Shown: piece by piece, positions 62,463 through 64,000 of the stretch
How positions within the stretch are numbered: position 1 is the first letter of the stretch
How the letters are laid out: each line of letters begins with the position of its first letter
Assembly (NCBI RefSeq): GCF_048403405.1
Contig: NZ_CP183129.1
DNA length: 64,000 nucleotides
Reading direction: 5' to 3' (one strand)
Source: Escherichia coli
Lineage (GTDB): Bacteria; Pseudomonadota; Gammaproteobacteria; Enterobacterales; Enterobacteriaceae
Translations under genes and position numbers: made by a program
The notes under the pieces: model-generated
Told to the model about the DNA's origin: nothing
Databases searched by the model: none
The model's input: the letters and a program-made list of their open reading frames with translations, nothing else

Positions 62463-63122
62463 ATGGCTAACTGGTTAAATCAACTGCAATCCCTGCTTGG
62501 GCAAAGCAGTTCTTCTGCCTCCTCGTCTGCGGATCAGGGATTGGGCAAACTTTTAGTGCCAGGCGCATTAGGCGGACTGGCTGGGCTGCTGGTCGCAAAT
62601 AAATCAGCACGTAAACTTCTTACGAAATATGGCACCAACGCGTTACTGGTTGGCGGCGGAGCGGTAGCGGGTACGGTGCTGTGGAATAAATACAAAGATA
62701 AAATTCGCGCGGCGCATCAGGACGAACCGCAGTTTGGCGCGCAAAGTACGCCGCTGGATGAGCGTACGGAACGTTTGATCCTTGCGCTGGTCTTTGCCGC
62801 TAAAAGTGATGGTCATATTGATGCCAAAGAACGTGCGGCAATCGATCAGCAATTGCGTGAAGCCGGTGTGGAAGAACAGGGGCGTGTACTCATTGAGCAG
62901 GCAATCGAACAACCGCTGGATCCACAACGCCTGGCTACCGGGATCCGCAATGAAGAAGAGGCGCTGGAAATCTATTTCCTGAGCTGCGCGGCTATTGATA
63001 TTGACCATTTTATGGAACGCAGTTACCTGAATGCACTGGGTGACGCGCTGAAAATCCCCCAGGATGTTCGTGACGGCATTGAACGCGATCTCGAACAGCA
63101 AAAACGTACTTTGGCGGAATAA
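62463..63122 (+). CDS. yebE: YebE (DUF533, TerB-like inner membrane protein)
   Basis: 219 aa. Confidence 0.9.
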
Positions 63123-63285
63123 TTCCGCTCTCAGGATAGCCTGAAGTTGACTATTTCGGGCTATCCAGAACCGCACAGCCATTTGAACAGGCTGATTTTC
63201 TCTGTCTGCATAACATTCGATATCCGCGCCATTACCTGTCATCATGTGACTGCTCCCCGCCCTGTCGGGCGAGGCTTCCCACTTC

Positions 63286-64000
63286 TTAAGCCGCAACCGT
63301 CTGTGTGACGGATTTACGCTGGCCTCCATGGGCAGAAACGACGAGTCCCGCCGCTTGTAATTCCAGTATGCCCTTGCGTTTGATGTTGAGCGCCGCGTTG
63401 ATATCGCGGTCATGTTCAACTCCACACTCTGGACACTGCCAGATGCGCTTATGTAATGGCATCTCCGACATTTTGTGACCGCAGCAGTGGCAGGTCTTCG
63501 AACTGGCGAACCATTGATCCAGTTTCACCAGATGCACACCTTTCTCTGTTGCTTTGTATTCCAGTTTTGTGATGAATCCAGACCATCCAGCATCGCCTAT
63601 CGCACGAGCCAGATGGTGATTTTTCATCATATTTGCCGTTTTCAATGTCTCGACAATTACCGCTTGGTTTTCGTCAACAATTGCGCGAGATAACTTGTGC
63701 TGGAAATCGGCACGGGCACTGGCTACCCGTTCGTGAACGGCTGCAAGTTGTATTCTGGCTTTGCGCCTGTTTGCGCTCCCTTTTTTCTTACGGGACAGTG
63801 CTTTCTGCTTCCGGCGCAGGTTGCGACTTGCATTGATTAGGTGGCGGGGACTGGCAATTTTATTGCCGTCCGATTTGATGACAAAATGCGCCAGCCCCAT
63901 ATCCAGCCCTGTCACATTTGATATCAGTGCGGGCTTTGCCGGCGCTTCCATCCCGTCGTCACAGAGTAACGACGCGTAGTATTTCCCGGTTGCGCTGCGG
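63286..64000 (-). CDS. tnpB: IS605-family TnpB (RNA-guided nuclease), C-terminal part; gene continues beyond window end
   Basis: Zn-finger CHCCGH...CPECG and RuvC-III motif; frame stays open upstream of the track M at 63951. Confidence 0.8.
   Translation of the reverse strand, partial: RSATGKYYASLLCDDGMEAPAKPALISNVTGLDMGLAHFVIKSDGNKIASPRHLINASRNLRRKQKALSRKKKGSANRRKARIQLAAVHERVASARADFQHKLSRAIVDENQAVIVETLKTANMMKNHHLARAIGDAGWSGFITKLEYKATEKGVHLVKLDQWFASSKTCHCCGHKMSEMPLHKRIWQCPECGVEHDRDINAALNIKRKGILELQAAGLVVSAHGGQRKSVTQTVAA

Follow-up and report, generated by a model that had tools for sequence, protein, structure and literature searches.

We analysed a window of 64,000 nucleotides of Escherichia coli DNA (the whole stretch at its full length) whose end falls within an IS200/IS605-family element located between yebE and ptrB. 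This element is very probably a complete 1,763-bp copy of ISEc46, endowed with mobility and TnpB-ωRNA homing as inferred from the paradigms of IS608 and ISDra2. RefSeq/PGAP labels in window-identical genomes were 'IS200/IS605-like element ISEc46 family transposase' for tnpA and 'RNA-guided endonuclease InsQ/TnpB family protein' for tnpB. Judged by that label, which ties it to the type copy, the element is ISEc46 (ISfinder name; IS200/IS605 family), already catalogued and annotated, and nothing was found that sets it apart. A search of the literature returned the name ISEc46 as listed in resistome and mobilome surveys only, and no functional study. The element is thus known and annotated in hundreds of genomes, its mechanism is probably the known one that the IS608 and ISDra2 paradigms predict, and it is of little importance in itself. 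What matters is that the map is corrected (the right end lies at 63246, the scaffold mostly in the 3' end of tnpB and the guide in the flank), that TTAG is assigned as target and transposon-adjacent motif for this TnpB clade, and that covariation backs an ωRNA structure which could help in annotating those relatives from Photorhabdus, Serratia, Idiomarina and Halomonas-group bacteria that lie outside Rfam coverage.

The last 4 kb of the window contained purT, yebG, yebF and yebE, all on the plus strand, with the yebE stop at 63122. Past yebE, a minus-strand frame still open at the window end terminated in TAA at 63288-63286 (237 aa plus stop). Six complete Escherichia coli genomes were 100% identical to window positions 62900-64000; over the last 20 kb of the window, five of them were 100% identical along the full length and the sixth 100.0% by rounded identity. 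The N-terminal 152 codons of tnpB, the tnpA gene and the left end lie outside the window and were read from the five to six genomes whose sequence equals that of the window throughout its last 20 kb; strain 4621 (locus L001, where adding 56899 to a coordinate gives that of the window) served as the reference. A preliminary description, made from the window alone, had recognised an IS605-family tnpB beside yebE, of which the C-terminal half was visible and the frame continued to the window end, and had placed its partner tnpA outside the window. These points held: the frame matched the protein families given below and was annotated by RefSeq in identical genomes, residues 153-389 of 389 were present (slightly more than half, and far beyond chance), and tnpA was found past tnpB in the window-identical genomes. 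Nor was this a truncated tnpB devoid of element ends, the other outcome considered at that stage: the genomes identical over 20 kb carried a full-length tnpB, an intact tnpA and both ends.

The ends of the element were defined with E. coli K-12 MG1655, which had no element between yebE and ptrB. Alignment of the K-12 intergenic region with that of L001 showed an exact insertion of 1,763 bp without a single duplicated base and with unambiguous cut points; the plus-strand junctions (slashes) were ...cattacctgtcatcat/GTGACTGCTCCCCGCCC... and ...GGTTTACGGCGTTTTTCG/ctaagcaatgac... The left end was located 85 bp before ptrB, and the right, tnpB-proximal end at 63246, i.e., the boundary fell between 63246 and 63245. 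Only 40 nt therefore separated the tnpB stop codon from the end of the element (63285-63246, minus strand). This non-coding right end was kept to its last base in more than 60 related loci, all ending in ...GAGCAGTCAC, and the sequences diverged beyond that point. After the stop codon, these loci shared the arrangement GAAGTGGGAAGCCTCGCC-loop-GGCGGGGAGCAGTCAC, and similarity stopped at the final C. The right-end 40-mer occurred exactly once in the window, against none expected by chance, and no further right end with up to three mismatches to it was found in the window. The segment 63123-63245 is native yebE-ptrB intergenic DNA because element-free K-12 carries the same stretch, with two base differences; a hairpin just past the yebE stop (63131-63169; inverted repeat I1) belongs to this native DNA.

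The part of tnpB inside the window (63286-64000, minus strand; residues 153-389 and the TAA stop), delimited by its translation and by Pfam, NCBIfam and phmmer matches, gave hits with Pfam OrfB_IS605 (PF01385, E=4.7e-25) and Cas12f1-like_TNB (PF07282, E=9.6e-26). The full product in window-identical genomes, 389 aa long (WP_000942662.1), also matched PF12323 and scored 342 bits with the NCBIfam model guided_TnpB (cutoff 100). By phmmer it was homologous to ISDra2 TnpB of Deinococcus radiodurans (8bf8/8exa/8h1j) practically over its whole length (E=3.6e-74, residues 4-380). In the ISDra2 alignment, D185 (63903-63901), E269 (63651-63649) and D351 (63405-63403) corresponded to the RuvC catalytic residues D191, E278 and D361, so that all three catalytic codons lie in the window (span 63403-63903, minus strand). 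Both CxxC pairs of the zinc finger (C322/C325 and C341/C344, encoded within the same span) were also kept. The protein has the features of an RNA-guided endonuclease, an OrfB_IS605/RuvC D-E-D triad and a zinc ribbon, and cleavage itself is predicted.

Gene order in strain 4621 was a full tnpB, a 56-bp spacer, a divergent tnpA of 141 aa and then ptrB. The TnpA sequence, read from genomes identical over 20 kb, is that of a Y1 HUH single-strand transposase: it scored 133.5 bits with Pfam Y1_Tnp (cutoff 23) and 141.8 bits with NCBIfam transpos_IS200 (cutoff 55), and it carried an HVH motif and a tyrosine in the sequence SRSYF. The remaining traits of the IS200/IS605 family were also found, namely the lack of terminal inverted repeats and of target duplication, subterminal imperfect palindromes on the same strand at both ends, and insertion 3' of a fixed tetranucleotide, TTAG, that abuts the left end. 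The divergent arrangement of tnpA and tnpB differs from that of ISDra2, where the two genes are co-directional and overlapping, and gene order and orientation differ from those of IS608 too. The TnpB of IS608 was reported to be inactive in an interference assay (bioRxiv 10.1101/2023.03.14.532601). Note that in E. coli 042 the tnpA of the yebE-ptrB copy was frameshifted (L002, 7613-8037) and tnpB was intact; therefore at least one lineage carries a non-autonomous copy.

The recognition signals of TnpA were compared with those of IS608. In IS608, the left top-strand cleavage site of TnpA lies 3' of TTAC, at a distance of 19 nt on the 5' side of the left palindrome, and the right one follows TCAA, 10 nt away on the 3' side of the right palindrome; the cleavage sites are recognised by pairing with four bases 5' of the palindrome foot, which at the left end are AAAG (PMC3201880). 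In ISEc46, the left palindrome on the tnpB-sense strand, CCTCGCCC-AATGC-GGGCGGGG, began 17 nt past TTAG and had AAAC just 5' of it. The right imperfect palindrome, CCTCGCCC-GACA-GGGCGGGG (63274-63255, minus strand), is part of a right end that was identical at three E. coli sites and was followed there by unrelated flanks; by the IS608 pattern it is preceded by a presumed TnpA guide tetranucleotide, GAAG (63278-63275), and followed by a 9-nt tail that ends in the presumed cleavage site TCAC (63249-63246, within 63254-63246). The distances from hairpin to end, 17 nt at the left and 9 nt at the right, compare with 19 and 10 nt in IS608. The pairs TTAG/AAAC in ISEc46 and TTAC/AAAG in IS608 follow the same pattern with the fourth pair swapped, and TCAC/GAAG parallels TCAA with a guide that is reportedly GAAT, the fourth position being different. 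The two elements also share a Y1 HUH transposase, subterminal imperfect palindromes, insertion 3' of a tetranucleotide and no target duplication. The layout of palindromes and guides identifies the tnpB-sense strand (minus in the window) as the active top strand, and it argues for an IS608-like single-strand mechanism in ISEc46.

Among 5,426 complete E. coli genomes, 455 contained the full ISEc46, and 400 (about 7% of the total) had it at the yebE-ptrB site. Copies at least 99.7% identical were found at two other places in E. coli. One lay on the 5.8-kb plasmid pJNE070796_3 (L004, 901-2663), immediately after a gene for a retron Se72-type reverse transcriptase, and the other (L005, 1501-3263) split yfaX, which encodes an IclR-family regulator, between yfaV and yfaY. 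On the tnpB-sense strand, all three E. coli sites read ...TTAG/CGAAAAACGCC at the left end and ...GGAGCAGTCAC/unrelated flank at the right end. A scan with one genome per species gave 80 loci with relatives of 63-99% amino-acid identity, in hosts that included Photorhabdus, Serratia, Rahnella, Idiomarina, Vibrio, Shewanella and Halomonas-group bacteria. In most of about 60 left junctions from related gammaproteobacterial loci, TTAG was followed by C(A/G)AA. With TTAG as the insertion target, 5'-TTAG is also the expected transposon-adjacent motif (TAM) of the ISEc46 clade. A full-text literature search for TnpB, TTAG and TAM together returned no paper.

Some E. coli relatives had lost tnpA. A plasmid element of about 1.3 kb (L007, NZ_CP063350.1, 1501-2819), 79-81% identical to ISEc46, shared with it the right end, tnpB, the left end and an abutting TTAG, and it lacked tnpA, as in tnpB-only (IS1341-like) derivatives; the chromosomal yebE-ptrB copy differs from these in keeping tnpA, and is in this sense autonomous. 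Approximately 125 further E. coli records, whose best match was 80-90% identical, were grouped with it. Such non-autonomous elements might be mobilisable in trans by the ISEc46 TnpA. Another plasmid copy (L006, NZ_CP195357.1, 1501-3011; 78% identical) was clearly decayed: its tnpB was frameshifted, its tnpA was truncated beside IS91, and a deletion of about 16 nt had removed most of stem 1 of the ωRNA (see below).

The orientation of the yebE-ptrB copy relative to replication was deduced from strand biases of the window. Over its 64 kb, the plus strand had a GC skew of +0.062, 12 Chi sites versus 4, and 4 KOPS motifs versus 1, which indicates that the plus strand is the leading nascent strand. 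The template of that leading strand is therefore the top strand of the element (minus). Excision and insertion of the single strand are described as taking place on the lagging-strand template (PMC8612924, PMC3201880), and so the yebE-ptrB copy is in an orientation where replication-coupled excision is expected to be rare and homing may seldom be called on. The copy in yfaX, which K-12 synteny places on the same replichore, lies in the opposite, favoured orientation. The disfavoured orientation may help to explain both the stable inheritance of the yebE-ptrB copy and the decay of tnpA in strain 042.

A different reading of the same locus is that tnpB is decaying or domesticated, as an incipient pseudogene or a TldR-like nuclease-dead regulator, and that the element is a fixed immobile relic of one lineage. 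The copy at yebE-ptrB is common to 400 genomes and so is largely inherited vertically, its top strand is placed where excision is disfavoured, its tnpA is frameshifted in strain 042, and the related plasmid copy with a frameshifted tnpB and an ωRNA deletion points the same way. We nevertheless consider such a relic very unlikely: the D-E-D triad and zinc finger were intact, tnpB and tnpA were full length in window-identical genomes, the ends and the ωRNA helices were preserved, and the copies of at least 99.7% identity at no fewer than two other sites, on the plasmid and in yfaX, argue for recent movement. A complete element with its mobility and homing functions remains the preferred reading.

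TnpB of ISDra2 binds an RNA of about 150 nt that corresponds to the tnpB 3' end plus the right end and terminates in about 16 nt of flanking sequence, the guide (PMC8612924). An equivalent scaffold was looked for in ISEc46 with an alignment (A1) of the 175-185 nt leading up to the element end, made of the window and 41 non-redundant relatives (n=42). RNAalifold predicted six helices. Of the cells in the 30 predicted pairs, 97.9% held a standard pair, and 16 pairs showed compensatory double changes among the 42 sequences. None of 500 shuffles reached the observed values, and with the partners slid by 1-3 columns only 35-56% of cells were paired and 3-6 pairs were compensatory. Among different lineages, for example, stem 3b was found as CCGTC/GACGG, CTGGC/GCCAG, CCGGT/ACCGG or CTCGA/TCGAG, and stem 2 as CCCA/TGGG, CCAA/TTGG or CTTA/TAAG. 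The single-sequence fold of the scaffold had z=-3.0. The predicted ωRNA (reRNA) scaffold occupies about 111 nt (63246-63356, minus strand), most of it over the last 23 codons of tnpB; its part 63356-63286 is inside the tnpB frame, the stop codon included. These results point to a structured ωRNA formed from the 3' end of tnpB and the right end, and ending at the element boundary.

[quoted passage not shown] Stem 1 was placed at 63356-63350/63342-63336 (-111 to -105/-97 to -91; in ISDra2, -116 to -111/-91 to -86) and stem 2 at 63332-63328/63282-63278 (-87 to -83/-37 to -33; in ISDra2, -84 to -81/-35 to -32). Stem 3a was at 63324-63318/63294-63289 (-79 to -73/-49 to -44; in ISDra2, -77 to -71/-48 to -42) and stem 3b at 63311-63307/63301-63297 (-66 to -62/-56 to -52; in ISDra2, within -70 to -49). 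Stem 4, at 63274-63268/63261-63255 (-29 to -23/-16 to -10; loop at -20 to -17 in ISDra2), is the right-end palindrome itself, and the scaffold ends in the 3' tail AGCAGUCAC (63254-63246). The ISDra2 RNA has a pseudoknot between -105 to -103 and -5 to -3 (PMC10097598 for all ISDra2 positions). A similar one is possible in ISEc46, by complementarity and analogy with ISDra2, between GACU in the stem-1 loop (63344-63347, minus strand; -102 to -99) and AGUC at 63251-63248 (-6 to -3), both sides being almost invariant and so giving no covariation signal. A long-range GAC/GUC pairing proposed by RNAalifold (columns 23-25 with 202-204) was set aside, since both sides were invariant and the ISDra2-like pseudoknot would, by analogy, explain the 3' nucleotides better. 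Beyond the shared catalytic triad, zinc finger and RNA geometry, the two systems differ in their target/TAM, TTGAT in ISDra2 and TTAG in ISEc46.

A scan of the whole element on both strands with Rfam 15 (RF02998, RF03065 and other ωRNA families; E<=1) gave no match, a result that fits the published narrow coverage of the Rfam models, which represent only a small subset of TnpB ωRNAs (bioRxiv 10.1101/2023.03.14.532601). When 63000-64000 was scanned for promoter and terminator consensus sequences, the number of sites was about that expected by chance; the only promoter-like ones were two weak sites within tnpB, and no candidate RNA start emerged. In Idiomarina, Aliidiomarina and Halomonas-group loci (L067, L068, L070, L073-L077, L080 and L081-L087), stem 4 contained an extra inner hairpin, e.g. 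CGTGGCGCTTTAGCGCTTAGG, where the loop was longer by about 15 nt and self-complementary.

The paired regions might instead reflect single-stranded DNA signals for TnpA combined with codon constraint at the end of tnpB, with no RNA involved: stem 4 doubles as the right-end palindrome that TnpA would bind as DNA, and stems 1-3 are largely within coding sequence. Such an origin is highly improbable, however, because IS608 TnpA requires only a subterminal palindrome, a 4-nt guide and a cleavage site (PMC3201880), codon constraint does not predict the 10 compensatory pairs in stems 1-3, the geometry agrees with that of the ωRNA seen by cryo-EM for a homologous TnpB (E=3.6e-74), and G-U pairs, tolerated in RNA and not in DNA, were frequent (e.g. 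80/96, 83/93, 109/155). Practically no credence is left for the layout of the preliminary description, which expected the scaffold in the 163 nt between the yebE and tnpB stops (63123-63285) and had the element end near yebE or outside the window: a right end is generally expected after tnpB, and there is a hairpin at 63131-63169, but the empty-site alignment rejects this layout, with the insertion boundary exact at 63246 inside the window and 63123-63245 also present in element-free K-12, so that only 63246-63285 is element; moreover, the right ends of more than 60 related elements diverge fully past ...GTCAC, and the covarying helices stand at 63356-63255, in a scaffold covering 63356-63246.

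With an ωRNA scaffold ending at 63246, the ISDra2 rule (PMC8612924) would take the adjoining flank as guide. This predicted guide is 5'-AUGAUGACAGGUAAUGGCGC (63226-63245, minus strand), of which 63245-63230 form the first 16 nt. The guide-matching flank stood directly after TTAG in the empty K-12 allele, i.e., the joint left at the donor site would be a perfect TAM plus target.

A cycle for ISEc46 can be proposed in which each step (excision by TnpA, production of the RNA, cleavage by TnpB) is inferred by homology. TnpA, following the IS608 and ISDra2 paradigms, would find where to cut through TTAG/AAAC and TCAC/GAAG base pairing, and would release the tnpB-sense (top) strand as a circle of single-stranded DNA, to be re-inserted 3' of another TTAG. 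After scarless excision, TTAG would stand directly before ATGATGACAGG..., a joint identical to the K-12 allele. An RNA made of the last ~70 nt of tnpB and the 40-nt right end (63356-63246), extending for about 16 nt into the flank (63245-63230), would provide the guide 5'-AUGAUGACAGGUAAUG. The complex of TnpB with this RNA would recognise TTAG followed by ATGATGACAGGTAATG at the donor joint and cut it through the RuvC site D185/E269/D351, and repair from the sister copy would restore the element, as in the model of Karvelis et al. (PMC8612924) and Meers et al. (bioRxiv 10.1101/2023.03.14.532601). The occupied locus would be spared, since there TCAC rather than TTAG precedes the guide-matching DNA and it is therefore not a target.

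Whether the whole system operates is a separate matter. That ISEc46 is a fully active TnpA, TnpB and ωRNA system native to E. coli, with TTAG as its TAM, is a tentative proposal that we hold possible though doubtful. As a resident of E. coli, an intact TnpB system of this kind could be a convenient native model. If ISEc46 is active, the yebE-ptrB and yfaX copies would provide a test, in the native host, of the roles of orientation, excision rate and TnpB homing in copy retention, and orientation could explain the fixation of the yebE-ptrB copy in a whole lineage.

Two further kinds of sequence were related to ISEc46. Unannotated 38-bp fragments equal to its right end (tail plus palindrome) were present on several plasmids (NZ_CP033379.1, L088, 2501-2538, and hits H78-H85); on the plasmid examined, the fragment adjoined IS3-family insertions and hokD, and it looks like the remnant of a truncated element. 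A 1,960-bp contig labelled 'MAG: Collinsella sp.' (L008, JAIJJM010000608.1) was 99% identical to ISEc46 and included the flank found on the yebE side in E. coli (atgatgacaggtaatggcgcgg...); almost certainly, this is a piece of E. coli sequence mis-binned in an actinobacterial metagenome-assembled genome.
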